Position numbers and translations under genes: made by a program | The notes under the pieces: model-generated | The model's database searches: none | What the model was told of the DNA's origin: nothing | The model's input: the letters and a program-made list of their open reading frames with translations, nothing else | DNA from: Stegostoma tigrinum | Taxonomy: Eukaryota | Direction of reading: 5' to 3' | DNA: 64,000 nt | NCBI RefSeq assembly: GCF_030684315.1 | Contig: NC_081365.1 | Coordinates: 24,616,062 to 24,680,061 of the forward strand | Shown: piece by piece, positions 11,167 through 43,298 of the stretch | How positions within the stretch are numbered: the stretch's first letter is position 1 | Layout of the letters: each line of letters begins with the position of its first letter

Positions 11167-11171
11167 CCAGG

Positions 11172-11776: not shown

Positions 11777-11918
11777 TGTCAGTATCAGTGTCACATTCTG
11801 ACTTTCCAAGTAAGGCTTTGTGCCCTGTTAGATAATAAACTCCTCTTTCCAAGCTGTGATTTAAATAATGAATCTCATGCTCTTATCACAGCCTAAAAGT
11901 GTTTAACTATCTTAGACA

Positions 11919-12141
11919 ATAAAATGTGGGGCTGGATGAACACAGCAGGCCAAGCAGCATCTCAGGAGCACAAAAGCTGACGTTTCGGGCCTAGACCCTT
12001 CATCAGAGAGCTCTCTGATGAAGGGTCTAGGCCCGAAACGTCAGCTTTTGTGCTCCTGAGATGCTGCTTGGCCTGCTGTGTTCATCCAGCCCCACATTTT
12101 ATTATCTTGGAATCTCCAGCATCTGCAGTTCCCATTATCTC
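11919..12141. mobile_element. PLE family A mini-palindrome (two inverted 3' termini only)
   Basis: Perfect 186-bp palindrome at 11918-12103, centred at 12010/12011. 15-bp TSD TAACTATCTTAGACA at 11904-11918 and 12142-12156. Confidence 0.93.
12015..12042 (+). ncRNA. Minimal hammerhead ribozyme motif, PLE family A (same motif at 11076-11103 +, 11979-12006 -, 32011-32038 -, 34984-35011 +; variants at 17482, 18607, 42307, 43196)
   Basis: CUGAUGA-A-GGGU(CUAG)GCCC-GAAAC-GUC: core boxes, stem II and an NUH triplet. Stem III is vestigial (palindromic ACGU) and stem I is weak. Activity is not shown. Confidence 0.7.
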
Positions 12142-13504
12142 TAACTATCTTAGACAGTCTGTATCTGCTTTAGTTTTTAACATGTCAATTTGTCACCTTA
12201 ATTCTGCTTTGCAATATTACTGGGTGCTGCAACATTGGTATAGATTACTTTTACGGCTTCTGATTTCCCTATTGTAGCTGTTCATCGTGGTTTCTGCTCA
12301 TTACTGGGGCAACTTTCATCGTGAGCTGTAAGTACTTTTTTTTAACTTCTAACCTTCATAGCTTGTTACTTTGTGTTGTTAATTTAAAGGATTTTTTTTT
12401 GGTGCCTTGCCCAATAGGGATTTTCAAGTTTACTCACAGAGCTCGAATATGTTTGCTGATTGGGTGATTTCTCACTTCTCGATGGAATCTGTAATTCCTT
12501 TACTGACTAGTCTTTAGCTCTTTCTAGCCCACACTGCTCTTCCTATGTTTCTTATCAGTTCTGAGGTAAAGACTTGAACCTGTAGTGTTGTTTCTCCCAA
12601 GTAGGTCTTTCCAGGAATTCCTGCAGACTATTTGTTTTCTCAAACAATTGCAGCTTCTGACTGTCTATGTGAATAAAGTGATAAAGTCTTTAAAGCTGTA
12701 AGCTCACTTAGCCTTTGCAAAATATCTTCTCCTGGTTCCAATGCCATTGTCCCTTGTGGTAATAAGTAACCAGGCCCATTGCTGATCACCGAGTGATATT
12801 GTGGGGGACCGTATAAACACTTTACAAACTGTCTAATGCTCTTGGCCACCTGCAGAGACTTATCATCTGACACTTCACACACACCAGTTGTATGATCTTT
12901 TGATCTCTCTGCCCTTGATCTCTCTGGCTATAAGGATGTTGCCTGCAATCCTCTTTCCTTTTAGCCTAGGTCTGAAGAACCTCTTTGGTTTACAGTGGTA
13001 GGATATCAACCAATACTCCCTTTCCTTCAGTGAACAAGCCTTTGAGGTCTTTGCAGGGCAGTGACTTCTGAAACCAGAAGTCATCGTCTTTGCAAGGACA
13101 TTCAGCGTGTGCGGAACTTTGGAGGGACCTCAGAGTGACTTCTCAGCCACGCCGCTGAGAGGCAACATTTGTATCAACCACTGCTGCAATTTAACAAGAG
13201 GCTCTTGTCTTAACAAGGCATAAATTAAGTTACATTTGCTAGTCAGGTATTGCTATTGAGATGAGGGAGAGTGCTGAAGACATAGGTCTCCACTCCATGA
13301 AATCCTAAAATGTTTAGCCTTATTATCATCCAAGCCTCTATAACATCATCAAATTGGTTGGAGTTTAATGCAATCTCAAACATTAACCCTTTCAGAACTA
13401 CTACATGATGCAACAACTTTGACCATGTTAAGAAGGTCATAATCTTCTTCCAGCAGTCTGGGAATTGATCTCCCTGAGTACCTTCTCTTATTCCTTTTCA
13501 ATAC

Positions 13505-14468
13505 CGCCAGGATCTGTTTTGGGGTCACTGCTATTTGTCATTTTTATAAATGACCTAGATGAGGGTGTAGAAGGATGGGTTAGTAAATTTGCGGATGACA
13601 CTAAAGTCAGTGGAGTTGTGGATAGTGTGGAAGGATGTTGCAGGTTACAGAGGGACATAGATAAACTGCAGAGCTGGGCTGAGGGGTGGCAAATGGAGTT
13701 TAATGTGGAAAAGTGTGAGGTGATTCACTTTGGAAGGAGTAACAGGAATACAGAGTACAGGGCTAATGGTAAGATTCTTGGTAGTGTGGATGAGCAAAGG
13801 GATCTCGGTGTCCATGTACATAGATTCCTGAAAGCTGCCACCCAGGTTGATAGGGTTGTTAAGGCGGCATATGGTGTGTTAGGTTTTATTGGTAGGGGGA
13901 TTGATTTTCAGAGCCATGAGCTCATGTTGCAGCTGTACAAAACTCTGGTGTGGCCACACCGAGTATTGCGTACAGTTCTGGTCGCCGCATAATAGGAAGG
14001 ATGTGGAAGCACTGGAAAGGGTGCAGAGGAGATTTACTAGGATGTTGCCTGGTATGGAGGGAAGGTCTTATGAGGAAAGGCTGAGGGACTTGAGGCTGCT
14101 TTCATTAGAGAGAAGAAGGTTAAGAGGTGAATTAATAGAAGCATACAAGATGATCAGAGGATTAGATAAGGTGGGCAGTGACAGTCTTTTTTCTCGGAGG
14201 GTGATGGCTAGCACGAGGGGACATAGTTTTAAGTTGAGGGGTGATAGATATAGGGCAGATGTCAGAGGTAGATTCTTTACTCAGAGAGCAGTAAGGGTGT
14301 GGAATGCCCCGCCTGCAACAGTAGTAGACTCACCAGCTTTAAGAGCATTGGATAAACATATGGATGATAATGGAATAGTGTAGGTTAGATGGGCTTCAGA
14401 TTGGTTTCACAAGTCGGTGCAACATCAAGGGCCGAGGGGCCTGTACTGTGCTGTAATGTTCTATGTTC
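13505..14468 (+). mobile_element. 5'-truncated CR1 LINE (RT C-terminal part, one frameshift near 13957)
   Basis: GSVLG.LLFVIFINDLD, FADDTK and EYCVQFWSP motifs. Tail gtaatgttctatgttct. Confidence 0.92.
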
Positions 14469-14766
14469 TTTGTAATAGAAGGTCCACCCATTTTCAAGGA
14501 AGCATGCATTCTCCTCCTGTTCACAGACAACTCTCTCTCCTAGTGCTCCTCTCTTCCCCATTCCCTTCAAATGCCTTAGTGACAGGCAGTAACAGTTTCC
14601 ACTGATTCAGAGTAAATTCCCTTCAGTAGGTGACAGTGGAGGTGAATTGGAGCATGTGCTAATCTCACATATTGTCAACCTCCTGCTGTGTGTGCAGCCA
14701 GACAGCAGCACAGGTTGCATTAGCTACAAGCTTAAATTATGCAAACTAAGGAGGCCGCTTGAATTT

Positions 14767-15234
14767 GACTTAGTAAGAACTGCCAATGCTGGAGTCAGGG
14801 ATAACACAGTTTGGAGCTGGAGGAGCACAGCAGATCAGGCAGCATCAGAGGAGCAGGAAAGTTGACGTTTTGGGTTGGGACCCGTCGCCCACCCATTGCC
14901 GACATTGCCCTACCCATCGCCGACCTCACTGATGACGTCACTAACTCTGCCCCCACAGCCAGCTCCAGCCCCAAGCCCTGCTGGATCTTTACCATCCCCC
15001 AGACCTCCCACTCACTGAGGACTAATGATCAGTCCTCAGTAAAGGACTCACCTTCATTCCCCTCCACCCACACATCAATGAATTCTGTTCATGCTTGGAC
15101 GTCGAACAGTTTTTCTACCGCATCCACCTCCACACCTACTTCTTTAACTGAAAGCCTAATCCACTCACTACAGATCCCTCTCCTGCCTCCAACGCACCCT
15201 ATCCTCCTGGACACCTCCATTTCTGAAGAAGGTT
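14767..15234. mobile_element. PLE-derived insertion with 5' inversion
   Basis: Minus-strand PLE 3' terminus at 14767-14883, then a plus-strand segment encoding VLSKGLTFIPLHPHINEF (PLE N-terminal region). TSD GCTTGAATTT at 14757-14766 and 15235-15244. Confidence 0.75.
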
Positions 15235-17029
15235 GCTTGAATTTTGTGTGTTGACTGCCTCAAGGGAAATGGCTGAAGGCAGATTGTGAATTGCAATCCT
15301 AGTGCCCATAAAGCGGTGCCAGTGAATATGTCATTCCTTCTTTCTTATTTTAGATGTTTCTATCTTCAGAATTTGTCTTTTAAACTTACTACGGTTTATA
15401 AAAGAAGCAAGTTCAATTTTAGGTAGAGCTTCATACGTGGATGCCCAGACAAAATCACAGTTATTTATACATATGCTACCAAAGAGCAAAGGATGTAAAT
15501 GAAGACATAGAGCTTTTAGCTTCTTTTTAAGTAGAAAAAATGAAGGCCGGTAAACCATTTCTGCATCAAAGTGGTATGAAACTCAAGCTAAGATCATGCA
15601 TATGGAGGAGACTCCAATACACAAAATCCACAGTGTGATGTGATTTAAACTGTGTTCTATATATATTTTAATATTGTCTGTGTAAGTTTGATTTTTGAAT
15701 TTTGAATTATGACATTTGGCTGTACCTCAAGGTTTCTGTTAGAAATTTATAGACTTCATACTTTTTTAAAGACATTTGCTTTTTCACTTTTAGTTTTAGG
15801 AAGTTCTGCAAAGTCCTTGGATGAAGATAATTGTATGAAGCAGTGCTCCTGCAATGGGAAGGAGAAAATAGTAAACATAGATTACTTTAGAGTAAGGAGC
15901 TAGTTATAGTTCCAACCATAAATATTTGGATAAAACTGTGAAGAGTACACTTGAAACATTTAAATTGAAGTGTATGAAAGCTCCAGGATTGGAGATTGCG
16001 AATTGAAACTGTGGTTATCTTAAGCCTTCCGATATAGTAAAGAACACATTTTCCTTTGATGTATATACTGGGCAAGGAGTGATTTGGGGAACTGTGCGAG
16101 AAATATTTTGGGTTCTGGAAATAAGTGCAATGGGATTAATGAGATTTTGCCTTTATCACACATTTATAAAATATTTGAATTTGTGTTATATGTAAATAGA
16201 TTGGTTTATTCCATTTTATCAATTTTTTCTGTTTTATTGTTAAAACAAACTCTGCAATGTTGTCTGTTTGTGTTTCAGTGATCTACCACTTTATTGAAAT
16301 TATTTTAAAAAATGATTGATCAAGCCAGATTCCAGTCTGGGATCTGATTTGCTCAGTAGTAACATCGGCTGGGATCATAGCGCACATTGAAAGACCAACA
16401 CACTTGAAACAGAGCAGAAGACAAGCCTCAGACTGGGCGACCTATGTGGAGTGATATTGATGGAAACATTACTAAAAAAAATGCAAAATCCATACAGAAA
16501 GACCAGAAGGGATTAGAAAGGATCATACATTTCTTTAGTATGAGGAAAAGCTTTTTCATTGGAAGAAAGAATGTTAAGATTACCCCTGTTAGACGTGTTC
16601 AGTATTATATGGGGTTTAGTAGGTAAACAGGCAAATCCATTTTTACTGGCAAATGAGACAGTAATCGGGAGCCATGCATTTAATTTAATTGAATGAGAAT
16701 GAGAGCCCAGCAGCTTTCAGGGTGTCATTGAATGGTGAGTTCCTAGTGGCTGTCTGGTAAACGATCAGGATCATTCTAATTGTTTGTCCATTTAATTTCT
16801 CTGAGCAGTAGAAACCAAAATTAGCTATGATTGCATGAGGTATATTAAAGAAAGTAGTACAACTAGACAGAAAATCATGTATCAGAATGTATCTGGCATA
16901 AACAATACTTAAATATTGCTGACCCAATTTTCTCGTCCCAGTGCTCCTTCCCCGTCCTTGCACAACTGATTAGAAAATCCACATTACATGTAGCAGGACC
17001 AAATTCAAACAAGCAGAAAAGGTTCAGAA

Positions 17030-18840
17030 AAGATTTACGAGGATGTTGCCAGGGTTGGAGAATTTGAGCTGCAGGGAGAGGTTGAGTAGACTGGGGCTAT
17101 TTTCACTGGAGCGTCAGAAGCTGAGGGGTAACCTTTATAGAGGTTTATAAAATCATGAGGGGCATGGAGAGGGTGAATAGGAAAAGTCTTTTCCTGGTGG
17201 TGGGAGAGTCCAAAACTAGAGCACACAGAATTAAGGTGAGACAGAAAGATATAAAAGGGACCTGAGGAGCAACTTTTTCACGTAGACAGTGGTGCATATA
17301 TGGAACGAGCTGCCAGAGGAAGTGTGGAGGCTGGGATGATCACATTTAAAAGGCACCTGGATGGGTATATGAATATGTATCAGTGATAATGGGAACTGCA
17401 GATGCTGGAGAATCCAAGATAACAAAGTGTGGAGCTGGATGAACACAGCAGGACAAACAGCATCTCAGGAGCACAAAAGCTGATGTTTCGGGCCTAGACC
17501 CTTCATCAGAGAGGGGGATGGGGAGAGGGAACTGGAATAAATAGGGAGAGAGGGGGAGGCAGACCGAAGATGGAGAGAAAACAAGATAGGTAGAGAGGAG
17601 AGTATAGGTGAGGAGGTAGGGAGGGGATAGGTCAGTCCAGGGAAGATGAACAGATCAAGGAGGCGGGATGAGGTGGTAGGTAGGAAATGGAGGTGTGGCT
17701 TGAGGTGGGAGGAAGGGATGGGTGAGAGGAAGAACAGGTTAGAGAGGCAGAGACAGGCTGGGCTGGTTTTGGGATGCGGTAGGGGGAGGGGAAGAGCTGG
17801 GCTGGTTGTGTGGTGCAGTGGGGGGAGGGGACGAACTGGGCTGGTTTTGGGATGCAGTGGGGGAGGGGGAGATTTTGAAGCTTGTGAAGTCCACATTGAT
17901 ACCATTGGGCTGCAGGGTTCCCAAGCGGAATATGAGTCGCTGTTCCTGCAACTTTCGGGTGGCATCATTGTGGCACTGCAGGAGGCCCATGATGGAAATG
18001 TCATCAAGCGGAGGCTTGGGGTCCGCTTTGCAGAACACCTCCGCTCGGTTCACAACAAACAACTGCACCTCCCAGTCGCGAACCATTTCCACTCCCCCTC
18101 CCATTCCTCAGACGACATGTTGATCGTGGGCCTCCTGCACTGCCACAATGATGCCACCCGAAGGTTGCAGGAACAGCAACTCATATTCCGCTTGGGAACC
18201 CTGCAGCCCAATGGTATCAACGTGGACTTCACAAGCTTCAAAATCTCCCCTTCCCCTACTGCATCCCAAAACCAGCCCAGTTCTTCCCCTCCCCCCACTG
18301 CATCACAAAACCAGCCCAGCTCATCCCCTCCCCCCACTGCAACCCAAAACCAGCCCTGTCTGCCTCTGCCTCCCTAACCTGTTCTTCCTCTCACCCATCC
18401 CTTCCTCCCATCTCAAGCCGCACCTCCATTTCCTATCTACCACCTCATCCCGCCTCCTTGATCTGTCCATCTTCCCTGGACTGACCTATCCCCTCCCTAC
18501 CTCCACACCTATACTCTCCTCTCTACCTATCTTGTTTTCTCTCCATTTTCGGTCCGCCTCCCCTTCTCTCCCTATTTATTCCAGTTCCCTCTCCTCATCC
18601 CCCTCTCTGATGAAGGGTCTAGGCCTGAAATGTCAGCTTTAGTGCTCCTGAGATGCTGCTTGGCCTGCTGTGTTCATCCAGCTCCGCACTTTGTTATCTT
18701 GCGTATATGAATATGAAGGGTTTGGTGGGATAGGTGCCAAATGCCGGCAAATGGGACTCGGTTTATACAGGATATCTGGTCAGCATGGATGAATTGGACT
18801 GAAGGATCTGTTTCCATTCTGTATATCTCTATGTCTCTAA
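17030..18840 (+). mobile_element. CR1 3' fragment split by the PLE palindrome at 17378-18702
   Basis: RFTRMLPGLE...LRGNLIEVYKIMRG...WNELP before the insert. The 3' UTR resumes after 18715. Confidence 0.8.
17378..18702. mobile_element. PLE family A tail-out inverted insertion (minus arm to ~18008, plus arm from ~18005)
   Basis: GIY-YIG C-terminal coding sequence on both strands. 13-bp TSD GTATATGAATATG at 17365-17377 and 18703-18715. CAAG microhomology at the central join. Confidence 0.92.
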
Positions 18841-20364
18841 GCCTGATGGGTTTCAATTTGCAGTGAAACTTTAGTATAAAAAGAGTGCCAACAACTTCTC
18901 TGTCTTTCTTTTTTTCTCCATGCTGATAGTTTAAAGTTTTGGATAGTAATTGATATAGTAAAATGATTTGATTTACTCATGGCACTAACCATAGGGTAAA
19001 GGTGATTCATCAAATGCCATCAATTTTGACTTTTACAACAGTTTGGGTTTCACATACTGCAAAGCAAAGCATCTGTGGAATTCGGCTTCTATGTAATCCT
19101 ATTCAGTCCTGCATGTAATGCTTGGAAAAAATCTAATAGAAAGTCATCTAGAATTACATTGTATGAAATGTACCTTTACAGCAACTGTTAAAGGAAGCTT
19201 TGAAAGATTTACTCCTTATTTGAAATTGCATGTGGCTGTTTCTTTGTTCTTCTTGACATTGGATCTAAACACCCTGTCAAAGGTTCACACTGAGTAACTG
19301 TATTTTGGATGCAGGAATGCCATGATGAAAATATGTCTGTCAAACCGCATTGCCCAGATTATAGTCAATGCTTGAAAAAACAAACCCCAAAGTATTTGGG
19401 AGAGGTAAGTTTACAATTCGCAAATCCTGGCAAAATTAAGAATGATCCCTGTGAAGAATGTTGCTGGAGTCTTAGTCAGTTACTACACTGCTCACAGTGA
19501 TAGAATATTATCTATCAGGAAAGGCCCTGTCTTTGATTGCTGGGTTGCACTGTGTTAGTTGATCTCAACCACTTAAACTTTAAGTGTTCCACATTCAGCT
19601 ACTGTGCTATTGAGGTAGTACATAATTTTAAAACGTATGTGAAGTTAAAAGCTAAAAACCAATGGTGACAACATTAACAGGTAACTGCAAAAATGCATTT
19701 TTATAAGATTTTGCTGATATCTTAACACAAACTTTCTTCAGTTTCTTCCAAATGGCTCTGGAAATGTTATACAAACACAGTGAGCATTTTCCCACTAATA
19801 TCAGCAACACTAACATCTTGCTTGATAAAGCCTAATTGGGTGTTCTATGAATATATAGCAAAGTTTCAACATATTAAAGATTAATTTCAAGAATTAATTT
19901 CTAAATTAGTTTTAATTGCTGCCTTACTGCAAATAAGATCATTTGAACTGTACAATTAGGTCATACTCATTAAATACAGTAGAAGGTGGTCATGTGAGAC
20001 TAAAGACATTAAAAATGAGGTTGGGGGAGTGCTGCAAACTGATACGTTAACAGTCTACACCACACAGAAGCAACGCAGAGATCAATGTCTGCCATTCTTT
20101 TTCCGAAGATTCCACTTGGCGATTTGGGAAAATCAGGGAGCACACCAGAGTCAAAGAATTTCTCCACAGGGAAGAAGCAAATCGATCAACACATGCATAA
20201 TTCTTTCAGCTAATTACACAGTGGAGAGCCAGGGAACAGGTTGCATATTCAGCCTGTGAGCAAGACAAATGGTGCGCAGTTGAGTTGGGAGGAGAGAAGT
20301 AAAAATAAGAATTGAAGTGAATTAGAAAAGTAGGGGAAAAAATACCAAGTTTGACCTTGCTGCA

Positions 20365-20695
20365 CTGTTTTCTTCTCCTCATGGGATGAGGGCACTGCTG
20401 ATTGGGCAGCATTTACTGCCCACCCCTAATTAGCCAGAGGGCAGGTCAGTCAACCACATCACTGTGGGTCTGGAGTCACATGTGGGCCAGGCCAGGTAAG
20501 GATGGCAGTTTCCTTCCCTGAAGGACATTAGTGAACCAGATGGGTTTTTCTTGACAATTGATTCATGGTCATTATTAGACTGTTAATTCCAGATATTTTT
20601 CTGCCATGGCTGGATTTGAACCTGGGTCCCCAGAATGGTACCTGGGTCTCTGGATTAACAGTCTAGCAATAATATCACGAGGCCATTGCCTCCCC
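20365..20695 (-). mobile_element. tRNA-headed SINE (possibly Deu-domain / SacSINE1-like)
   Basis: Minus strand reads gggaggcaatggcctcgtg...caggttcaaatcc (B-box). Related copies at ~26435-26670 (+), ~35490-35860 (-) and ~51410-51680 (-). Confidence 0.6.
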
Positions 20696-22069
20696 ATATG
20701 ATAGCAGTCATATTCCACACTGGCTGAGGTCACCATGATGGACTCTTCCTCTGAACCTGTCCCATAGCCTGTGGTGTGGTGATACTTGGATAAAACCACC
20801 ACCAGTTGTCTCTCTCTGCAGGCCTGCGGTCTGGTAAGACTATGGCAACTTTGCATTCAATTAGGGCTGCAATTGGTGCAAGAGCTCTTTGACTGCATTG
20901 CCAATTCTTTGCCTGTAAGTGATCAAATTATATTTCAGAAAAATATTCCTATGTTGCCTGAAGTGGTTGACAGATGACATATAGCAATGATTGCAGAACT
21001 GCTACCCTTCTATAAATATCACACTAAACGACAAATTTGCTGAAGTTTAGTTGTTCTTTATCTTAGCACTCTATCTGAGTCTGACTTAAGCCTGATGTTT
21101 TATTAGTTTGAGTGACACCTTCAATGTACATGCCTTCACTCGGGCAAGCCCTCAGCTTCCAATTGGAAGCAGCACAATAGCTGGCCAATGTTCTCATCAA
21201 GTTTATTCACTTCAGCATAGCCACAGTTCAGTTTGGTCAGGTGGGTCATTCACCAGACAACACATCATTAGTGGGTCTGGAGATGTTTTAACTTGTGAAA
21301 TGCAGTGTCCCTCAAGGTCAAAAAACAAAGATATTATGGATATAACTTAACAGAAGACAAAAATGTGTTTTACTCACATTATAAGGAAAAATTGATGTAT
21401 GATTTATGAAAAAGAATGACAATACTTTGAATAAAAAATTAGAGATCAGTGTTTCAATGAATAGATAATCTTAATTTATGAAAAGGTGCTAATAGGTGAG
21501 TTGTTCTGCACAGTTTATTTTGATAATTTGATTTTGATATAAATTTGCAGTGTAACTTTTCAGTAATTTTATAGATTGATATAGCATGGTGGAGGCCATT
21601 TAACTTTCACTCAGGCAAACAGGCAAGAGATGTGAGACCATTGGAAGTATTTTGACCTATTTAATGAAATGAGGGATGATACATTCCTAAATTGACTTTA
21701 AAATCTTTAACTTTTCTGTAATTAACATAATAAAAGGTCCCAATGGATTGATAGAGGTTGACATGAAAGCTATGACTTCACTTTCCCAGGAAAACATGGG
21801 TTAAGTTAGACTAAAGTTGAGTTGAATTCAGGTGTGTGCCTGTCGTTTGGGTGCTGAAGGGTCAAACTTAAGGAAGCAAGCCCAGCTTTCCTGTTTAAAT
21901 AAAATGCAGACACAAGAAGCTGATTCAGGGTCAGCTACATACATCGCTAAGGATTGCAATGTTCGAAGTTCAAAAGGAAAGGTTGCTTTTAAAGAGCTAT
22001 AACTTGTTTTAAAAGATAGAGATGCTTTGATAGGGACAGAAAATCACCAAGTTGCTTCCTATGTTATCA

Positions 22070-22192
22070 GAAGGGTCTAGGCCCGAAACTTTAGCTTTTG
22101 TGCTCCTAAGATGCTGCTTGGCCTGCTGTGTTCATCCAGTTTCACATTTCATTATCTTGGATTGTCTAGCATCTGCAGTTCCCATTATCTCT
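22070..22192 (+). mobile_element. PLE family A 3'-terminal fragment
   Basis: gaagggtctaggcccgaaac...gcatctgcagttcccattatctct matches the full-length terminus. Confidence 0.85.
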
Positions 22193-30700: not shown

Positions 30701-31941
30701 ATTACATTTCAAAGACATTTGGATAAGTACATGAATAGGAATGGTTTGAAGAGATATGGGGAGGCATTAAGTTTAGTTTGGGATTATGTTTAGCAATGGA
30801 CTGGTTGGACTGAATGATCTGTTTCTGTGCTGTATGAATCTGTAATCTGTAATATAAATGCTGAAATCTTGCACGTTTGTCTATGTGGGTTATGACTTCA
30901 GGGTAACTGCAGGAATCTTTAATGAACAACAGGTACCACTATATTATTGGCGCACTGCTGGAGCAAGGGCCTGGTGACTTCATCAGTATCCCAATTCACC
31001 ATCCTGCTCACCTACTGTACTTGAGTAAATCTATTTCAATCAACTGGAATTTTTACACTAATGACCTTAAACAACCCATCCAATTTATTTTACCATTATT
31101 AAGTATGAATTCATTAACAAATTGTTAAACTCAGCCAAGAAACCATGGGGCACACAGCAAGTTAATGGACAATGTAATATCCAAGGAAAGTAATGGGGCC
31201 TACATATTATTACTGTTGATCAGGTGACACACTTAAACATGGAAGTTAATGCCTAGGAGTTGAAAAATATTAAAATCGTAGTACTCATCAGTATTCAGTT
31301 TAAGGATACATTTCATGTGAGTAATCACAACTCTGCTCAAAAACAACCAGAATAAAGGGGCTACTTTAACACAAAGTGCAATAAATATACATTTTGTGCC
31401 TTTGTGTCAGAAAGTATGCCAGCTTTCCTTGAATGTAAAAAGCCTGAAGATATTTTGCTGAATTTAACCACAATGCTATGCACAAGACAATTACATGGAC
31501 CTTAGCACAGCAGTGTCATTTTAAGCAGCACGCCCAACAATCTGTGTTTTTGAAACAGTTTATTTTTGTAAGGCAATTTTAATGAAACCATCCTGTTTTC
31601 ATACATAGAGTTTTATCATCAAGCTACACAGGCTGGTAATAGATGATATGGAACAGAAGAATGGCAAGAGTGCAAAAATAAGGGTTTAACTTGCTCAAGG
31701 TTATTCTCGTTTCAAAACCTGAAGGACATAACTTGAAGATAAGTGTGATGTGTTTATTGCCACCCAGATATATAAATTTAAAATATTGAAACTGAGCAAT
31801 AACCGATTCTCCCTTCTACATGAAAGTTAGTGCAAACACCTTAAATGGCTAAATGAGTTCAACACACAAGCACTTAACATTAGAGAATAAACATAGTTTC
31901 ATGTTTATGCAATATGGAGAAGAAGCTTATATATTGAGAAT

Positions 31942-34900
31942 TCCAAGATAATAAAATGTGAGGCTGGATGAACACAGCACGCCAAGCAGCATCTCAGGAG
32001 CACAAAAGCTGACGTTTCGGGCCTAGACCCTTCATCAGAGAGGGGGATGGGGAGAGGGAACTGGAATAAATAGGGAGAGAGGGGGAGGCGGAGCAAAGAT
32101 GGAGAGTAAAGAAGATAGGTGGAGAGAGTAAGGGTGGGGAGGTAGGGAGGGGATAGGTCAGTCCAGGGAAGACGGACAGGTCAAGGAGGTGGGATGAGGT
32201 TAGTAGGTAGATGGGGGTGCGGCTTGGGGTGAGAGGAAGGGATGGGTGAGAGGAAGAACAGGTTAGGGAGGCAGAGACAGGTTGGACTGGTTTTGGGATG
32301 CAGTGGGTGGGGGGGAAGAGCTGGGCTGGTTGTGTGGTGCAGTGGGGGGAGGGGATGAACTGGGCTGGTTTAGGGATGCAGTAGGGGAAGGGGAGATTTT
32401 GAAACTGGTGAAGTCCACATTGATACCATTAGGCTGCAGGGTTCCCAGGCGGAATATGAGTTGCTGTTCCTGCAACCTTCGGGTGGCATCATTGTGGCAC
32501 TGCAGGGGCCCATGATGGACATGTCATCTAAAGAATGAGAGGGGGAGTGGAAATGGTTTGCGACTGGGAGGTGCAGTTGTTTGTTGCGAACTGAGCGGAG
32601 GTGTTCTGCAAAGCGGTCTCCAAGCCTCCGCTTGGTTTCCCCAATGTAGAGGAAGCCACACCGGGTACAGTGGATGCAGTATACCACATTGGCAGATGTG
32701 CAGGTGATCCTCTGCTTAATGTGGAATGTCATCTTGGGGCCTGGGATAGGGGTGAGGGAGGAGGTGTGGGGACAAGTGTAGCATTTCCTGCGGTTGCAGG
32801 GGAAGGTGCCGGGTGTGGTGGGGTTGGAGGGCAGTGAGGAGCGAACAAGGGAGTCACGGAGAGAGTGGTCTCTCCGGAGAGCAGACAGGGGTGGGGATGG
32901 AAAAATGTCTTGGGTGGTGGGGTCGGATTGTAAATGGCGGAAGTGTCAGAGGATGATGCGTTGTATCCGGAGGTTGGTAGGGTGGTGTGTGAGAACGAGG
33001 GGAATCCTCTTTGGGCGGTTGTGGCGGGGGCAGGGTGTGAGGGATGTGTTGCCGGAAATACGGGAGACGCGGTCAAGGGCGTTCTCGATCACTGTGGGGG
33101 GAAAGTTGCGGTCCTTGAACATCTGGGATGTGTGGGAGTGGAATGTCTTATCGTGGGAGCAGATGCGGTGGAGGCGGAGGAATTGGGAATAGGGGATGGA
33201 ATTTTTGCAGGAGGGTGGGTGGGAGGAGGTGTATCCTAGGTAGCTGTGGGAGTGGGTGGGCTTGAAATGGACATCAGTTACAAGCTGGTTGCCTGAGATG
33301 GAGACTGAGAGGTCCAGAAAGGTGAGGGATGTGCTGGAGGGTGGAAGGTGTTGGTGAAGTGGATGAACTGTTCGAGCTCCTCTGGGGAGCAAGAGGCGGC
33401 GCCGATACAGTCATCAATGTACCGGAGGAAGAGGTGGGGTTTGGGGCCTGTGTAGGTGCGGAAGAGGGACTGTTCCATGTAACCTACAAAGAGGCAGGCA
33501 TAGCTGGGGCCCATGCGTGGAACAGTCCCTCTTCCGCACCTACACAGGCCCCAAACCCGACCTCTTCCTCCGGTACATTGATGACTGTATCGGCGCTGCC
33601 TCTTGCTCCCCAGAGGAGCTCGAACAGTTCATCCACTTCACCAACACCTTCCACCCCAACCTTCAGTTCACCTGGGCCATCTCCAGCACATCCCTCACCT
33701 TCCTGGACCTCTCAGTCTCCATCTCAGGCAACCAGCTTGTAACTGATGTCCATTTCAAGCCCACCGACTCCCACAGCTACCTAGAATACCCCTCCTCCCA
33801 CCCACCCTCCTGCAAAAATTCCATCCCCTGTTCCCAATTCCTCCGCCTCCGCCGCATCTGCTCCCACGATAAGACATTCCACTCCCGCACATCCCAGATG
33901 TCCAAGTTCTTCAAGGACCGCAACTTTCCCCCCACAGTGATCGAGAACGCCCTTGACCGCGTCTCCCGTATTTCCGGCAACACATCCCTCACACCCTGCC
34001 CCCGCCACAACCGCCCAAAGAGGATTCCCCTCGTTCTCACACACCACCCTAACAACCTCCGGATACAACGCATCATCCTCCGACACTTCCGCCAGTTACA
34101 ATCTGACCCCACCACCCAAGACATTTTTCCATCCCCACCCCTGTCTGCTTTCCGGAGAGACCACTCTCTCCGTGACTCCCTTGTTCGCTTCACACTGCCC
34201 TCCAACCCCACCACACCCGGCACCTTCCCCTGCAACCGCAGGAAATGCTACACTTGCCCCCACACCTCCTCCCTCACCCCTATCCCAGGCCCCAAGATGA
34301 CATTCCACATTAAGCAGAGTTTCACCTGCACATCTGCCAATGTGGTATACTGCATCCACTGTACCCGGTGTGGCTTCCTCTACATTGGGGAAACCAAGCG
34401 GAGGCTTGGAGACCGCTTTGCAGAACACCTCCGCTCAGTTCGCAACAAACAACTGCACCTCCCAGTCGCAAACCATTTCCACTCCCCCTCCCATTCTTTA
34501 GATGACATGTCCATCATGGGCCTCCTGCAGTGCCACAATGATGCCACCCGAAGTTTGCAGGAACAGCAACTCATATTCCGCTTGGGAACCCTGCAGCCTA
34601 ATGGTATCAATGTGGACTTCACCAGTTTCAAAATCTCCCCTTCCCCAACTGCATCCCTAAACCAGCCCAGTTCGTCCCCTCCCCCCACTGCACCACACAA
34701 CCAGCCCAGCTCTTCCCCCCCACCCACTGCATCCCAAAACCAGTCCAACCTGTCTCTGCCTCCCTAACCTGTTCTTCCTCTCACCCATCCCTTCCTCCCA
34801 CCCCAAGCCGCACCCCCATCTACCTACTAACCTCATCCCACCTCCTTGACCTGTCCGTCTTCCCTGGACTGACCTATCCCCTCCCTACCTATACTCTCTC

Positions 34901-35104
34901 CACCTATCTTCTTTACTCTCCATCTTCGGTCCGCCTCCCCCTCTCTCCCTATTTATTCCAGTTCCCTCTCCCCATCCCCCTCTCTGATGAAGGGTCTAGG
35001 CCCGAAACGTCAGCTTTTGTGCTCCTGAGATGCTGCTTGTTCATCCAGCCTCACATTTTATTATCTTGGAATTCTCCAGCATCTGCAGTTCCCATTATCT
35101 CTGA
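31942..35104. mobile_element. PLE family A 3.2-kb tail-out inverted insertion (minus arm to ~33517, plus arm from ~33516)
   Basis: RT motifs MGPSYACLFVG and FLRYIDD plus GIY-YIG on opposite arms. 14-bp TSD TATATATTGAGAAT at 31928-31941 and 35105-35118. Confidence 0.95.
33517..34767 (+). pseudogene. 5'-truncated but uninterrupted PLE ORF (416 aa: RT YIDD, thumb, Cys/His linker, GIY-YIG, Pro/Ser tail)
   Basis: Open frame with FLRYIDD, KPTDSHSYL..SSHP, CNRRKCYTC and VVYCIHCTRCGFLYIGET. No native start; the frame begins at the inversion join. Confidence 0.88.
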
Positions 35105-37384
35105 TATATATTGAGAATGTTGTGTTTTTCATTCATATGCATATAATCTACAAATACTCTCGAGTTTGAAAGTGTACATTTTCAGCAGGGAGACAATCCT
35201 CAGTACAGACCTAAAATGAGTGGAGTTCACAAAAGAAGTTGCCTGACTGAAACTACGGCTGTTTAATTTCAGATGTTGTATCGCGTCTTACAAGATCTAT
35301 CACTGAACATCAGTCCTCCAGCATATAGAATGTTCAAATAAAATGCATCCTTAATATAAAATAGTGGTTTATGCTCATTGCCTCTGCTGAATCATAAGGT
35401 CTTAATATATTTTATCAATTAGTACTTCCCAAACTGCATTTTGGTTAATACGTTTTGTACAAAACACAATTATCTTCAAATGCTTTTAATTCACTCGCAG
35501 GATGTGGATGTTGTTGATAATGCTAGTATTTATTGTTCACCTCCAATTACCCTTAAGAAAATAGAATTGAGCTGTCTTCTTTAATATAATTGACTGCCAT
35601 TGCAGAAAACAGTTAAGAGTCAACCGCAAAGCTGTGGGTTGGAAGTTATATATAGACCAGAGCAGGTAAGGCTGGCAAAGCAGTAGTAAAGCAAATAAGA
35701 TTTTAACAACAGTCTGATAGTTTTATTCTCCCTGTTATTATTAGTAGATACTCACGCCACATATATTTAATTAAATTCCCAAGTGCCATGGCAGATTCAA
35801 ACTGCCTCCAGATTATTAGGCTGGTCCTTTCCCAGGCTAGTCCAATAACCAATATGTGGTTATACCTACCTGCAAGAGACAGAAACTTTTCAACATGCAA
35901 TTATAATCAATTAGATGTTGTGTAGGCAAATGCATCTATTCTGCACACAGTATGATCTTCCAAACTAGAATAAGTGAATGAATGAACATTTTGTCTGAGC
36001 TGTGGAAGGAATGTTTTCTATGACACTAAACAAAATTCCTTGTTTTTCAAATGAGACCATGAGGTCTGAAACATTCACATGAAAATAGTGAGCCTTGCCT
36101 TGGAATTAAGGATAGCACCTTCAACAGTACAGCAGTCCTTTCATTATGGTGCTCGAAAGCACTGAACCTGCAAACTGCTGATTCAGAGGTGTTAACAGCT
36201 GAGTGAAGCTGACTCTTCATAAGTATTGTCTTCTCTTTCAAAAAGGTCAGGCTGGATTTTAATTCCATGCAGGTGGATGTGCTTTGAATGTGTAAAAATC
36301 TTGACTGTAATTCTGTAGACAATGCACACCTCCCCACCAAATCAGAAAAGCAGAAACAGAAAGCTACAAAGAATCATATGAAAACATGGCCTTAGATGGT
36401 TGAGGGTTTTGAAAAAGGATCCAGCACTGCTAGAACTGACTGAAGTACGGTGGTTCAGAAAAAAGCTCCCAATATGATGAAATGTATTGCACCTCTCACT
36501 TTTGCCAAAAGTAAATGATACAGTAACACTCTCATCACAGAAATGTGATTTTTCCGTATCCACAGATAATAGCATTCAGCACCTTTAGAAAATATATCAG
36601 AATAATTGGAGGACGTCACTTACACAGATACTGACAATGAAGTGTGACTTGGATGGTGTTACAGTTCTCAGGGAATCCCAGTTGCTGTGGCAACGTGCAC
36701 TTTCCTATGTGTTTGTTGTCTGGAGGTATCAGACTTAAACAATCTTTCTATCTCTTTCCAGAGATTTCTCCCAAGCTTGTCATTAGCATTTCTGGGAAGA
36801 GTTTGCAAGTTAATATTGAGCCTGTTTTGCTGTGTTATGAACACATCCTTGACCATCAAGCTCTGGAGTGAGTCTTGAATTTAGAGGTTCTGGCACAGAG
36901 GCAGGAACACTATCCGTGCACCACTTTACATGGAAACAAATATTTAATCCAATGAGATGTAGAATTAGCTTTTGGTCAGTGTGACCTATTAATAAGAGTT
37001 GGAAGCAAGTAGCATTAGGATGAAATGACTTTAAAGAAAGGTGAGTATGAGATCTGTGGAGATTGAGAACTAAAGAGCTAAATAGAACTAAATAGAAAAA
37101 ATGTAGAATAAACAGCTTAAAACAAAATGGGACTTAAGTAGAGTTAAGCAGAAGAAAAAGAGTTAACAAGTTAAGGATAGGAAAAGAAATGAAGGAGGGG
37201 ATGGGGAAAGAGAAATTAGGGCTGAAAATTAGAGAAAATGTTGAAACAAACACACTGTAAGGATTCAATGAAAAAAGAGTGATAGCGAGAGAACCAAGGA
37301 AGAGTCTCAGAGGTGACAGCCAGGAACTGCAAAACATCAGGAGGACAGGGAACACCAAATTGGAGGAGAGAAAGCAAGAGTGAA

Positions 37385-37524
37385 AACAGGCCGACGTGAC
37401 AGTCTGCAGATGCTCTAAGTCTGACATTAAAACAGAAGGCGTTGGAGAGGCTTAGTAGACCCTGCAGCATCTGTGGAGAGAGAAACAGGGTCGACGCTTC
37501 GAGTTCAATGTGACTCTCCTTCAG
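37385..37524 (-). mobile_element. Old PLE-type terminal fragment with decayed hammerhead motif
   Basis: Minus strand CTGAAGGA-GAGTC..GAACTC-GAAGCGTC, followed by ctccacagatgctgcag. Similar fragments at ~24760-24877, ~40170-40259 and ~560-620. Confidence 0.6.
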
Positions 37525-37719
37525 TTAAAGCATAAAAAGGTGATGGAAGGACAAAACGCTGGAGGAAAGGTATAACCTATTCCTGTTCCTCAAACTTGGA
37601 GATGCATCAGCCAAACGGATCCATCAAATCAGCAGGACAACGGAAGAGAAAACAGGAGGAAAACTAGATGAAAAATAAAACGACTTTAAAAGAAGCAGAT
37701 GAGACTCTGAAACTATAAG

Positions 37720-38830
37720 GTAAGAATAAGGCGGTTTAGGGGATGCGGGGGGAGGGTTTACAATCAGCATAAACTTCAGCGGCGAATCATTCCTCCCGGT
37801 TTACAAACCAACACGGCTCCCGCCTTCTGGAAATCTGAGAAGTTTGAAAGATGAAATCAGCGGTGGGCTTTCCTTTCAGCGGCTCAGTGTGTGCGCGCAC
37901 AGCGCTCCAGCGGCTGAAACACTCCACTCCCCAGCACCCGCCCCCCCCCCCCCCCGCCTCCAAACCCAAATCCTACCAGAACATTACAGCGCCGCATCTG
38001 TTCCTGTAGCAATCGGGGAGCGGGGGGGTGGGACGTCTTTTTTTCTCTCTTAAATCCCCCCGGGGAGGTGGTCAGCACCAGTCAATAATTGCTGACATGG
38101 AACGGAGGCCCGAATAGGCTAAAGGGAGGGGAGAGAAGGATATCTGGAGGTGCACGAGAAAATATGCAAAAAGTAATAATGCAAAAAGTTGCAGTCAGGT
38201 TGATTGAATGGAAAGTTCAAACTGCCCCGGCTCACAGGAAATACTCCAGCGCTGACGGACTGAAGATCTGCGCTTGACATGAGCCGAGAAACAACCGCCT
38301 CGGATGTAAACATTGTGGGAAAACAAAACAAAGAAAGAGAGGAATTTGGTGGACGGAATAACATCTTTTTTTTGCCTGTGTGTTCGCTTTGTTCAATGAC
38401 TGGAGTGGAAAGTAACTGGGAAGTTGGTTCCAAGGCTGCACTGTTGATTGCAATGCTGCATTAGTGAGTGGCCGGAGGGAGCCGGAGTGGGTCTGTCAGT
38501 ACCGTCCTCCCGGGAGAGGCACCCTCTGCCCATCAGCAGCCCGGAGCAATGCCAGCCCCTGCCGGGGACAGCTTGGACAATCCCGCCCTGGGAGATCTGC
38601 ACATTTCCACCTCGGACCTTCACCTTCCCCTTCCCGTCGCCCGCGTTTCCCGAGAGGCGATCCGGAATTTCCACCACACCAAGCGGGTTGGAAGTTACCT
38701 GATTGGGAGGAAGTTAGGAGAGGGATCTTTCGCCAAAGTTAGGGAAGGGTTGCACGTCCTGACCGGGGAAAGGGTAAGTTTTCCCCCCGCGGCTCGCTTC
38801 TGCTTTTGAATTTTACGTTCACGTGGATCC
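37720..38830 (+). promoter_or_regulatory. CpG island / promoter and 5' UTR region of HUNK
   Basis: Local rise in GC and CpG against a CpG-poor background. GC-box-like tracts at ~37936-37960 and ~38015-38035. Spans coding exon 1. The TSS cannot be determined from sequence. Confidence 0.7.
38549..38773 (+). CDS. HUNK: HUNK kinase, coding exon 1 (MPAPAGD...KRVGSYLIGRKLGEGSFAKVREGLHVLTGER)
   Basis: ATG at 38549 in context GCAATGC. Contains the kinase Gly-rich loop LGEGSFAKV and closely resembles the vertebrate HUNK N-terminus as I recall it. Donor AGG|GTAAGT at 38773/38774, phase 0. Confidence 0.93.
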
Positions 38831-39287
38831 TTGCGTGTCAATTGGCTGTAGCGTTTGTATGTCCCAAGACAAAAGTGTGTTGTGAATACTTTCACACGTA
38901 CAGGCAAGATCGCTGCAAACTCCGGTGTTTTCAGTTGCAATGACAATTGATGGTGCCTTTCAATAATCCCCACTCCCCGTTCCACATTGCGTTGGAAATA
39001 CATATTCGGCATCTAGGTGGAAGGCGGTAAATTCAATATTTCTGGTGGATACCACTAGTCAGAAGTCTCCTAATCTCTAATAGACACCGTTGGACCAAAG
39101 TTAATGTGAACTTGTGATGGATGCAGGTCAGAGGCTTGTTTCCATTCCAGGAAGAACTGCTCTCAGCAGGCCTTCCCCTTTGAGTTACACATTTGGCCAG
39201 CAGTCCATCAAATCGTGGAGACCCTTGGTCACTGTGTTAACCTGTGATGGTTGCTATAGAGAGCCCCTCTGTCGAAGGTGGGGTGAT

Positions 39288-39603
39288 CATAGAATCCCCA
39301 CAGTGTGGAAATAGGCCCTTTAGCCCAATAAATCCACACCGACCCCTGGAGCATCCCATCCCACCCACTCCCCCCCCATAACCCCCTAATCTACACACCC
39401 CTGAACACTATGGGCAATTTAGCATGGCCAGTCCACCTATCCTGCACATCTTTGAACTGTGGGAAGAAACGGGGAGCACAGAGGAAACCCAACTAGACAC
39501 GGGGAGAATGTGCAAACTCCACACTGACAGTCGCCTGAGAATGGAATATAACCCAGGTTCCTGGTACTCTGAGGCAACAGTGCTAACCGCAGAGCCACCA
39601 TGC
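39288..39603 (-). mobile_element. HE1-like SINE in HUNK intron 1
   Basis: Reverse complement of the 9447-type SINE, with tail gggattctatg. Confidence 0.85.
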
Positions 39604-42204
39604 TACTCTCAAATAATCTATGAAGAGAATCCATATCTGAAGCTGTGATTGAGACGCCATGGTCAGAGAGGTGTGGTTAATTGTGATTTCTATCATTGTT
39701 CAGAATGTGTTAACATCTGACAGAACCCTTGGCCAGGAGTGTGTTAGCTTATTCCTTTAGCATTTGAGTTAATGTGCTTTCAGTGACAACACATTTCCAA
39801 CATTTATTTTTAATTTCAAATCTCCCACTTCCCAAATCCCTGCTGACCTCATAAAGGTCTGATTGATGAATTTTGCTATTCTCACAGCAGTTTGGCAGCA
39901 CAAAGTGCTGAGATAATGTACTTCACTACATCCTTCTGGCCTGATGATACTACATCCTGACTCCCGAGGGTACGACCCACCGTTGCGCTAAAAGCCATCA
40001 TATCTTGTCCAGTGGGTCGTCAATGTAATACTGAGCTTGCATTTCGAGAAAATTTTCAGGTTTGTACCTGCTTTCTGTTGAAAGGAAAATGCTATTTGTG
40101 GGACTGGACTTTAAAATCTCCCCATCTTTAAGGCAAAACCAGTTTAAATAAAACAGATAGAGAAATTAAATCGAAAATGCTGCAAATACTCAGCTCATCA
40201 GGTAGCATCTGTGAAAAGAGAAATTAACTTAACATTTCAAGTCAGTGACTTTTGATCAGGAAAATGTTGAGCTTGAATGACAATTAACAATCAGTACAAA
40301 TATTGATTCCACCCATGACTGCAGCCGTGGTACCCAATTTCCATTATCCTATCTTCATGTAATTAACACTAAGAGATGATTGAAACGCTAATAGATTGGA
40401 TAAAATTAACTAAACTGAAAGGGCAGCTGACACTGTTTGAATAAGCTTTCTGTCAATTTTTTTAGCAGGGCCTGCACTGAATGAAATTCAAAAACAATTT
40501 TTGTGAGTTTCTATTCCAATACGTGCTGATTGCACACTCATCTTCCTTTATGAATTCTGTTTGTTTTAACTTATAACAAAGAATACCAATGATTATTTGG
40601 GCTGCACAGACCCTTTTTTACAAATCCAGTTAATTCAATGCCATTTCATCTTGTCCTTTCATTTGGGGCATATAAAATTCTGTATAATTTTAGTTGAAGT
40701 CTAGACTAGCGAGAGTTGTAATAACAGTGGTGAATTCAAAATATTCATTTTGTGCAAATTCCAAAGATTTGTTCAGTTTAAACTAAAAACCTCTACTCAG
40801 CTAACATCACCCTGATTACCCTGGTGATCTTCAAAAGACTTTTTAGTCAGCTTGGTGCTGGAATGGGAGTGTCAAATCAATGTTGGAAGTAATCCCTGCA
40901 GTCTAAGTGCATGTCTCTAAAGTAGCAGACTACAAGTATTCTGTAGAATGCACAATCACAAGACCATAAAATGGTCTAATCTCATGCTTCTGCTGAAGGA
41001 GGATAGCACAGGATACAATTGATTGTAGCGGAAAGAAAATGGATAGGGATACTTATCCATTAAAATAGAAAACATGCAGTAGCTTTTGTTTCAGTCAATT
41101 TTTAGAATTCATTGAGGGAATGTGGGCATCATTTATTGTCCTTCCCTAGTTGCCCTTAGAAGGTGGTAATGAACTGCCTTTTGCAACTGTTGCAGTCACT
41201 TGGTGTATGTGCACCTACAATGCTGTTAAGGGTGCGCATCAACGACTTTAATGTAGCAACAGTGAAGGAACAATATATTTCCATGTAAGGTTGCTAGTAT
41301 CTCGAATGAGAACTTGCAGGTGGAAGGTGCTGCCAAAGGTATTTTGGTGAAATTCTGCAGTGCATCTGGTAGATGATACACTGTGTTGCTACTAAGCATC
41401 AGTGATGGGGGAAATGAATGTTTGAGGATGTGATGCCAATGAGCAGGCTGCATTTTCCTCGATGATGCCAAACTCTTTGAATGTGGTTGGAGCTGCATTC
41501 ATTTAGGCAAGTGGGAAAATAGTATCACACCCCTGACCTGAGTGTTATTGGTGATGAGCAGGCTTTGGGGAGTTAGGACATGAGTTACTCATGGCAGGTA
41601 TCCTAGACTCTGACTTGGTCTTGTTTCAAAAATATTTATATGACAAGTCAGTTCAGTTTCTGGCTAATGAATGGAGCTTGATGAAGACTCGCCATTGCTG
41701 TTCCTCCTCCCCCTCCCAATCTTCTGCAAAAATCACTTGTGATGAATTAATCACCAGATGAATTCCTGTTTTACCTGTCACACTGACATGTGAGTATCAG
41801 AGTTAGTGTATGGCCCTAATGAGCTGTGAGACAGTACATGGTCAGAGTGAGTGACTTCCTTTGAGGAATAGATGTTATCCTCTAGCATCATCCTTTGTCA
41901 GACACTTGTGAGAGGGCCAAGACATGAATTAGATCTGTCAAGGTAAGAAGAAGCTTGTTTTAATAATATTTCCCTCTTTGCTAGCATCATGTCAACATGA
42001 GTGAGAGCTGGATGCCATGTGGTGGTGTAATATTTAGTTCTGTTTACTTGTCGCCAAGAGTCCTCATGACCCCAGTTCCAGTGACTAAGCACATCACAAT
42101 CTGCTGACATCCAAGACCTTCTTTGTGGTTGTCAGTTGGATGATTGATGTAGGATCATCTGTGAATCTTCCTGACATCCTGATAAAGGAGATCAAGAAAC
42201 TATA

Positions 42205-43284
42205 TCAGAGATAATGGGAACTGCAGATGCTGGGGAATCCAAGATAATAAAGTGTGAATCTGGATGAACACAGCAGGCCAAGCAGCATCTCAGGAGCACA
42301 AAAGCTGACGTTTCGGGCCTAGACACTTCATCAGAGAGGGGGATGGGGTGAGGGTTCTGGAATAAATAGGGAGAGAGGGGGAGGTGGACCGAAGATGGAG
42401 AGAAAAGAAGATAGGTGGAGAGGAGAGTATAGGTGGGGAGGTAGGGAGGGGATAGGTCAGTCCAGGGAAAACGGACAGGTCAAGGAGGTGGGATGAGGTT
42501 AGTAGGTAGAAGATGCAGGTGCGGCTTGGGGTGGGAGGAAGGGATGGGTGAGAGGAAGAACAGGTTAGGGAGGCAGAGACAGGTTGGACTGGTTTTGGGA
42601 TGTAGTGGGTGGAGGGGAAGAGCTGGGCTGGTTGTGTGGGGAGGGGACGAACTGGGCTGGTTTTGGGATGCAGTGGGGGAAGGGGAGATTTTGAAGCTGG
42701 TGAAGTCCACATTGATACCATTGGGCTGCAGGGTTCCCAAGCGGAATATGACTTGCTGTAACAGCAACTCATATTCCGCTTGGGAACCCTGCAGCCCAAT
42801 GGTATCAATGTGGACTTCACAAGCTTCAAAATCTCCCCTTCCCCCACCGCATCCCAAAACCAGCCCAGTTCGTCCCCTCCCCCCACTGCACCACATAACC
42901 AGCCCAGCTCTTCCCCTCCACCCACTGCATCCCAAAACCAGTTTAGCCTGTCTCTGCCTCCCTAACCTGTTCTTCCTCTCACCCATCCCTTCCTCCCACC
43001 CCAAGCCGCACCTCCATCTCCTACCTACTAACCTCATCCCACCTCCTTGACCTGTCCGTCTTCCCTGGACCGACCTATCCCCTCCCTACCTCCCCACCTA
43101 TACTCTCCTGTCCACCTATCTTCTTCTCTCTCCATCTTCGGTCCGCCTCGCCCTCTCTCCCTATTTATTCCAGAACCCTCACCCCATCCCCCTCTCTGAT
43201 GAAGGGACTAGGCCCGAAACGTCAGCTTTTGTGGTCCTGAGATGCTGCTTGGCCTGCTGTGTTCATCCAGATTCACACTTTATT
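42205..43284. mobile_element. PLE family A 1.1-kb tail-out palindrome in HUNK intron 1
   Basis: Arms meet at ttgctgt|aacagcaa (~42759/42760) with essentially no spacer. 14-bp TSD ATCAAGAAACTATA at 42191-42204 and 43285-43298. Confidence 0.93.
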
Positions 43285-43298
43285 ATCAAGAAACTATA

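Follow-up and report, generated by a model that had tools for sequence, protein, structure and literature searches.

Palindromic insertions in a 64-kb window of Stegostoma tigrinum

The window analysed here, a stretch of 64,000 nucleotides (nt) of the Stegostoma tigrinum contig NC_081365.1 (assembly GCF_030684315.1), contains copies of a Penelope-like element (PLE). Comparison of the window with itself and searches of the flanks revealed four loci (L1 to L4), each consisting of two 5'-truncated PLE arms joined head-to-head inside one target site duplication (TSD) of 13-15 bp (Table 1). A sequence-only reading of the window had placed four tail-out palindromes with single TSDs at these positions, and both the positions and the 14-fold range of the insert lengths (223 to 3163 nt) were confirmed. 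The arms of one locus differ from each other at 0 of 92 (L1), 38 of 591 (L2), 28 of 1518 (L3) and 19 of 512 (L4) aligned positions. The stretches that resemble a spacer in L2 and L3 are ordinary element sequence belonging to the longer arm. At each of the four loci, exactly one arm carries a 3' tail of about 35 nt and the other arm stops just before this tail. In L2 and L3, the arm that is longer at its 5' end is the tail-less one. Because the arms diverge in sequence and have different 3' ends, L1 to L4 are not fold-backs produced by the assembly.

Table 1. Arms, target site duplications and single copies of the PLE family in the window (L1 to L4, palindromic loci)
Feature	Position	Strand	Remarks
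L1 insert	11919-12141		223 nt; 5' offset 0; spacer zero
L1 left TSD copy	11904..11918		15 bp, exact
L1 left arm	11919..12010	-	tail-less; 5' end 132 nt from element 3' end; putative minimal hammerhead core inside
L1 right arm	12011..12141	+	tailed; zero-spacer junction 12010/12011
L1 right TSD copy	12142..12156		contigs of one related species align from exactly 12142
L2 insert	17378-18702		1325 nt; 5' offset 104-106
L2 left TSD copy	17365..17377		13 bp, exact; within fragment of a CR1-like long interspersed nuclear element (LINE); 21 paralogous empty sites
L2 left arm	17378..18008	-	tailed, 5'-shorter
L2 right arm	18005..18702	+	tail-less, about 104 nt longer at 5' end
L2 right TSD copy	18703..18715		
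L3 insert	31942-35104		3163 nt; 5' offset 38-40
L3 left TSD copy	31928..31941		14 bp, exact
L3 left arm	31942..33517	-	tail-less, about 38-40 nt longer at 5' end; apparent spacer is its reverse transcriptase coding sequence
L3 right arm	33516..35104	+	tailed; 2-nt CG overlap at junction; tail about 35070-35104
L3 right TSD copy	35105..35118		
L4 insert	42205-43284		1080 nt; 5' offset 0-1
L4 left TSD copy	42191..42204		14 bp, exact
L4 left arm	42205..42760	-	tailed
L4 right arm	42761..43284	+	tail-less; palindrome centre 42760
L4 right TSD copy	43285..43298		
Single-arm copy, same family	10229..11167	+	tail-less; no TSD found
Single-arm copy, same family	22070..22192	+	tailed; no TSD found

Identity of the element

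The right arm of L3 encodes the C-terminal half of a reverse transcriptase (RT) with a YIDD motif, a CX4CxxC linker and a GIY-YIG-like region, the YIDD motif and the GIY-YIG-like region lying in one open frame (33367-34767). Pfam matched GIY-YIG on the copy at 10195 (E 5e-4) and RVT_1 on a long copy (E 1e-5), both below the gathering score, and gave no match at E<=0.001 on the L3 frame itself; weak as these matches are, the domains follow each other in the order expected. Longer homologues numbered 155; among the 120 listed, most have about 720-1100 amino acids with PF00078 and some also PF01541. All 12 aligned proteins share the linker cysteines C236, C241 and C244. A PDB sequence search with protein P0001 gave no match, and no intact full-length open reading frame (ORF) was seen in the 1.614-Mb genome sample described below. 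As judged from these predicted domains, the element is an endonuclease-bearing (EN+) PLE with RT plus, at the C-terminus, a GIY-YIG endonuclease (EN) in one ORF. A CX2-5CxxC linker between RT and EN marks the Neptune and Nematis clades (PMC8557442). The present element, judged by its linker, is probably of this Neptune/Nematis type; a Penelope or Poseidon element would have no such Zn-finger-like linker.

The 3' ends of the copies are bimodal, about 35 nt apart, in agreement with the optional tail of 30-40 nt of EN+ PLEs. Each of the two outer ends falls in a sharp cluster at an ATTATCT-like motif. In tandem and full-length copies elsewhere, element sequence runs on past the tail, and therefore both 3' ends, the starts of reverse transcription, are internal positions of the element. 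A pseudo-long terminal repeat (pLTR) or partial tandem organisation was found in an old full-length copy and in tandem units. The old, apparently full-length copy (L019:8433 to L020:2899) shows the textbook Penelope layout: a single TSD encloses a tailed arm in inverted orientation, a direct 5' repeat, the body and a tail-less 3' end. The tandem units (L033:7693-8508 and L012:7185-8247) measure about 300-315 nt, consist of the pLTR and about 100 nt of post-tail element sequence, and occur together with an inverted arm and a TSD. Their structure resembles that of non-autonomous, retrozyme-like derivatives that arose by internal deletion; tandem retrozymes have been tied to PLE pLTRs (preprint 10.64898/2026.07.22.740005).

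A putative minimal hammerhead core (CTGATGA...GAAAC with a stem between, about 34984-35011) lies about 100-125 nt from the 3' end. Its helix I appears degenerate by eye, and Rfam gave no hammerhead match. Minimal hammerheads have been described in PLEs of fish (PMC4209133). Rfam microRNA matches at the centres of L3 and L4 were below the gathering score and reflect hairpins only. At the ORF end, a 39-nt unit with about three repeats is present at 34636-34747 of the window and in every long arm.

Palindromes predominate among young copies and represent single insertions

The family was assessed in a sample composed of the window and 1.55 Mb of contiguous blocks on 16 contigs (1.614 Mb in total), the block positions being hand-picked mid-contig and blind to content, not drawn at random. 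The first ten blocks constitute the discovery set and six blocks fetched later the replication set. Arms were mapped on one natural 3.5-kb copy as the reference, arms separated by <=60 nt were scored as adjacent, and copies with at least 88% identity and an intact 3' end were defined as young. From a genome search with the element 3' end, 40 of 429 candidates were scored; eight loci were inspected and used in no count. A corresponding search with a probe from the RT region gave no candidates, which is uninformative as such searches skip common words.

The family occupies 8.9% of the sample at a density of about 155 loci per Mb (251 loci). Its 374 arms formed 102 head-to-head, 6 tail-to-tail and 6 tandem adjacencies. 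Counted by locus, the head-to-head share was 101 of 251 at all ages, 69 of 108 at an identity of at least 88% and 34 of 44 at an identity of at least 95%. The earlier proposal that palindromes are a main integration route of this family was thereby borne out for young copies. The drop of the head-to-head share with age may reflect loss of arms or loss of detection.

A TSD, mostly of 13-16 bp, was scored in 68 of the 102 pairs. In the discovery set, 50 of 70 pairs had a TSD, compared with 0-2 in each of five controls with shuffled flanks. The TSDs are 65% AT against 58% in the sample. Paralogous empty sites with a single copy of the TSD were found at 11 discovery-set loci lying inside other repeats (L2 and ten more). 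The single TSD and the one-copy empty sites support the earlier claim that each palindrome is one insertion. They also effectively refute an assembly fold-back artefact or two neighbouring independent insertions as the origin of the pairs. PLE inverted structures do trouble assemblies (PMC8557442), and among the contig matches listed, none spanned a whole palindrome. However, the arms differ by up to 6% and end differently at 3', one TSD encloses both of them, the empty sites at the 11 loci are single-copy, and head-to-head pairs outnumber tail-to-tail pairs by 102 to 6.

Nearly every palindrome carries one tail

The combination of one tailed and one tail-less arm was found in 77 of 82 classifiable pairs (p 6e-18 versus 0.5), besides four tail/tail pairs and one tail-less/tail-less pair. 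One-tail pairs accounted for 51 of 56 in the discovery set, 26 of 26 in the replication set and 72 of 77 when the block of the window was left out. All 63 TSD-bearing pairs with both ends classifiable obeyed this one-tail rule, one 30-nt repeat of tandem-duplication origin having been removed before the tally. Young single arms of the discovery set were tailed in 21 cases and tail-less in 20; it follows that the two ends are start sites independent of each other and that 0.5 is an appropriate null. Three complex loci missed by the pair script also have their outer ends in one TSD, two of them with a tailed and a tail-less end and one with an atypical end inside the tail. In the literature covered, to which older key papers and supplements do not belong, we did not find the one-tail rule quantified, nor a twin-priming model for PLEs, nor such palindromes in sharks; earlier publications may nevertheless contain them.

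Arm lengths and polarity

In the 77 one-tail pairs, the two arms ended within 20 nt of each other at the 5' side in 38 cases, the tail-less arm was 5'-longer by at least 20 nt in 22 cases and the tailed arm was longer in 17 cases. The 5' offsets ranged from -2399 to +1522 nt. The tail-less arm was also 5'-longer in 14 of 40 young TSD-bearing pairs, L2 and L3 among them. This polarity bears on simple snap-back of the complementary DNA (cDNA), one of the two mechanisms proposed from the window alone, in which one nick would prime synthesis from the tail end and the cDNA would fold back, copy itself and stop about 35 nt short. The 55 of 77 pairs in which the tailed arm reaches about as far at its 5' end as the other arm, or farther, fit such a route, which also predicts arms that are identical at birth, as in L1. 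A copied arm, however, cannot hold sequence that is absent from its template, and therefore the 22 of 77 pairs with a longer tail-less arm, including L2 and L3, show that snap-back is not general; tail-less single arms exist as well. The one-tail rule and the occurrence of both polarities exclude simple snap-back as the general route. It is improbable as the explanation of the pairs and survives only as a minority route for the class with equal ends.

The sequence-only reading had further noted that both arms of a palindrome stop at nearly the same element coordinate and had concluded that the whole insert is mirrored. The former holds for all four window loci and only partially elsewhere (38 of 77 pairs). 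Arm lengths correlated overall (rho 0.66), driven by numerous pairs of about 100-135 nt. In the 30 pairs with an arm longer than 200 nt, Spearman rho was 0.17 (p 0.36), and the ratio of the short to the long arm was at least 0.8 in 13 pairs and below 0.5 in 13. Mirroring of the whole insert is not general. Nevertheless, near-equal pairs were in excess: 11 of the 30 long pairs ended within 110 nt of each other, compared with 3.6 expected by permutation (p 0.0002). The excess was 8 against 3.0 when the block of the window, whose L1 to L4 all belong to the near-equal class, was removed, and, for the replication set by itself, 3 against 1.1 (p 0.055). Arm equality is contradicted most clearly by a young insertion (L084:3773-8302), whose arms, of about 1.05 kb and 3.5 kb, meet without a spacer inside a 16-bp TSD; its ORF region shows short tandem repeats before the RT as well as frameshifts. 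From young to old, the arms ended within 20 nt of each other in 6 of 14, 17 of 31 and 15 of 32 pairs. Later equalisation of arms by loop deletion is not favoured because of this lack of an age trend. Eight young arms end at the predicted ribozyme cut (d=100), so that cleavage there might create a hotspot of 5' ends, but bins 123 and 132 hold seven each and a self-complementary AGCT occurs at the position of the cut.

The excess of near-equal arms is a point in favour of a second alternative, in which a hairpin or palindromic intermediate is formed first by self-priming, possibly on an antisense transcript, and an endonuclease resolves its ends asymmetrically before or during joining to the staggered cut. 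Self-priming on an antisense template (PMC3846280) and asymmetric end resolution leaving a tail at one end (PMC8557442) have both been suggested for PLEs. This route would yield exactly one tail per insertion and arms that are usually near relatives of each other, as observed. On the other hand, the tail would have to fall randomly on the loop-bearing or the copied arm (22 versus 17), loops of up to 2.4 kb would be needed along with zero-loop palindromes, and single arms have the same two ends, which match start sites of RT in vitro (PMC11167929). We regard this alternative as unlikely, although less so than snap-back.

Junctions and similarity of partner arms

The outer ends were flush in 43 of 58 cases. 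Over these 43 flush ends, microhomology between target and element averaged 1.86 nt; a two-sided null, which replaced a one-sided null of 0.40, gave 0.65 nt and did not exceed 1.16 in 2000 draws. When the outer overlap is counted as element sequence, the TSDs shrink to 8-14 bp. Of 38 young central junctions, 18 were flush, and at least 2 nt were shared in 7 of these 18 (null 12%). In several pairs with equal ends, the arms meet at self-complementary 2-4-mers (AGCT, GC) or directly, with no spacer, and at such junctions, for example that of L1, a fold-back loop has no room.

The junctions also bear on the possibility that palindromic master loci are transcribed and retrotransposed as a whole, so that the pairs would be copies of a few earlier structures. 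Three short loci do share the same junction position (100/100). By contrast, the 38 central junctions listed are mostly locus-specific and all four window loci differ. Moreover, one outer end would be expected to vary in position if a palindromic RNA were truncated at its 5' side, whereas both outer ends cluster tightly. An origin from master loci is very unlikely.

Partner arms are usually close relatives. In 13 of 18 long young pairs, the partner belonged to the closest 5% of other arms, and in seven it was the nearest of all. This similarity could be due to copying from one RNA, to one active master copy or to gene conversion.

A proposed twin-priming model

Taken together, the single TSD, the one-tail rule, the finding that either arm can be the longer one and the short microhomology at the outer ends are best explained, in our view with a probability of about 0.65, by twin priming with one start site per nick and joining of the two cDNA 3' ends. 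We infer that the PLE protein would act as a dimer and nick both target strands. Of two internal start sites lying about 35 nt from each other on the RNA, each nick would use a different one to prime reverse transcription. A template jump or annealing of 1-4 nt would subsequently link the 3' ends of the two cDNAs, followed by filling-in. With two independent primings, the fixed outer ends, their microhomology and the occurrence of both polarities would all be accounted for. Coupled priming from both staggered nicks had been the other mechanism put forward from the window alone, and it is the better of the two.

It may be that one RNA molecule served as the template of both cDNAs and that the RT running behind displaced the cDNA made ahead of it; we assign this slightly less than even odds. 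Copying of the same RNA would explain both the use of one of each start site and the many stops at the same base. Such stops could represent the 5' end of a broken RNA or a trailing RT catching a stalled leader. RTs of the PLE type are not known to carry an RNase H and are generally capable of strand displacement, properties that are needed for this part of the model.

A biochemical precedent is available from a Poseidon PLE of a lizard, the protein of which nicks and extends both strands in vitro, starts at two internal sites bounding the tail and is predicted to be a dimer (PMC11167929); later integration steps were left unvalidated there.

Several observations weigh against twin priming as formulated here. 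The one-tail rule was violated by 5 of 82 pairs, none of them with a TSD of normal length, and an end was unclassifiable in 20 of the 102 pairs. Single arms made up 38 of 108 young loci, and a TSD was found in just 9 of 41 young single arms of the discovery set, which means that other outcomes or later loss exist. A search for a hidden short partner beside these single copies found, in 3 of the 41, inverted matches that were weak (score 20); one of these resembles the tail. At the central junctions, 20 of 38 young cases had 1-28 extra letters instead of microhomology, part of which may be alignment noise. The partner lay outside the closest 5% in 5 of 18 long young pairs, and one active master copy or gene conversion would account for arm similarity without a shared RNA. 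The in vitro support comes from the element of another clade and not from the present family. In that system, start-site use was described as not differing between the strands, so that the assay does not demonstrate the coupling, and no homology between target and start site was reported, unlike the microhomology found here (PMC11167929).

Comparison with known systems

The sequence-only reading did not decide whether the architecture had been described for shark PLEs; it corresponds to published descriptions of the typical PLE structure (PMC3846280, PMC8557442, PMC2377424). An adjacent pLTR in inverted orientation, one TSD and a tail of 31 bp carried by one of the inverted pLTRs characterise the typical Penelope structure, and head-to-head palindromes have been noted (PMC3846280); inverted repeats of variable size are the commonest form in D. 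virilis (PMC2377424). Typical EN+ PLEs (Penelope of D. virilis, Pen2a of Adineta vaga and Naiad; PMC2377424, PMC3846280, PMC8557442) resemble the present family in the inverted, 5'-truncated head-to-head copy, the one TSD around the unit, the 30-40 nt tail often at one end only, the variable size of the inverted repeats and the palindromes at junctions. They differ in that most units here are so truncated that the two arms constitute the whole insert. In addition, the TSDs here measure 13-16 bp as compared with 8-10 bp in the Adineta examples, the family reaches about 155 loci per Mb of the sample, and the one-tail rule is counted (77 of 82) where the published descriptions say "often".

The Poseidon element PAc of Anolis carolinensis (PMC11167929) is similar in having two internal 3' ends on either side of the tail, with a hammerhead motif (putative in the present family) lying upstream of them, and in its somewhat AT-rich insertion sites. 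It differs from the present family, which has the CX4CxxC linker of the Neptune/Nematis type and 1-4 nt of primer-template microhomology. The abstract, results and early methods of the PAc paper do not address inverted genomic copies or the pairing of start sites (PMC11167929). What the present counts contribute is the one-tail rule together with the test of polarity, the architecture being already known.

In twin priming of L1 retrotransposons, two nicks prime two cDNAs, which results in an inversion within one TSD, often with microhomology at the junction. The internal position at which the second primer anneals varies, so that the segments share hardly any sequence, and inverted copies are the less frequent outcome. 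In the PLE family, by contrast, the two primings would occur at fixed sites separated by 35 nt, the insert contains the 3' end twice, and palindromes are the majority outcome in young copies. The pairs do not show the non-overlapping segments and the one 3' end of the L1 type: both arms reach the 3' end and overlap over the whole of the shorter arm.

Further observations on the window

Some single arms, such as those at 10229-11167 and 22070-22192, may be palindromes that have lost one arm. Short older fragments of the ribozyme-bearing 3' end, with about 80% identity to the young family, lie at 14812-14882 and 60227-60301. For a related species (organism A), contigs of two samples begin to align exactly at 12142 and have 145 and 71 more letters that are not placed, whereas a contig of the same species as the window extends 21 nt into the tail. 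An empty L1 site in the related species is thereby suggested; a joint alignment was not among the matches listed, and the site was not counted as evidence. Over 11922-12182 and 17403-18707, the contig depth of organism C was much below that of organisms A and D. Depth is not copy number, but the difference hints weakly at an expansion of the family after the split of organism C.

Two CR1-like LINE 3' ends, at 4516-5070 (+) and 5753-6307 (-), are 97% identical and lie tail-to-tail about 680 nt apart, with an RVT_1 frame at 5834-6946; their polarity is opposite to that of the PLE pairs. A second dispersed family of short repeats with 75-82% identity, possibly a short interspersed nuclear element, occurs at 9449-9670, 39285-39606, 55216-55338 and 60595-60890.

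Implications

Twin priming predicts that paired top-strand and bottom-strand products use different start sites. Somewhat tentatively, PLEs in general may normally integrate by a programmed form of it, in which a dimer nicks about 14 bp apart and one fixed start site of a single RNA is used per nick. If this is true, the RNA's 3' end would be copied twice and the second cDNA would be the solution for the second strand. The tail at one end and the inverted pLTR, both described throughout the class, would then be one event, of which the genome would hold on the order of 10^5 natural records. A rough extrapolation from the hand-picked blocks gives about 2x10^5 hairpin-capable palindromes in the 3.2-Gb genome, an abundance that matters for assembly, false microRNA calls, the load of double-stranded RNA and the decay of palindromes.

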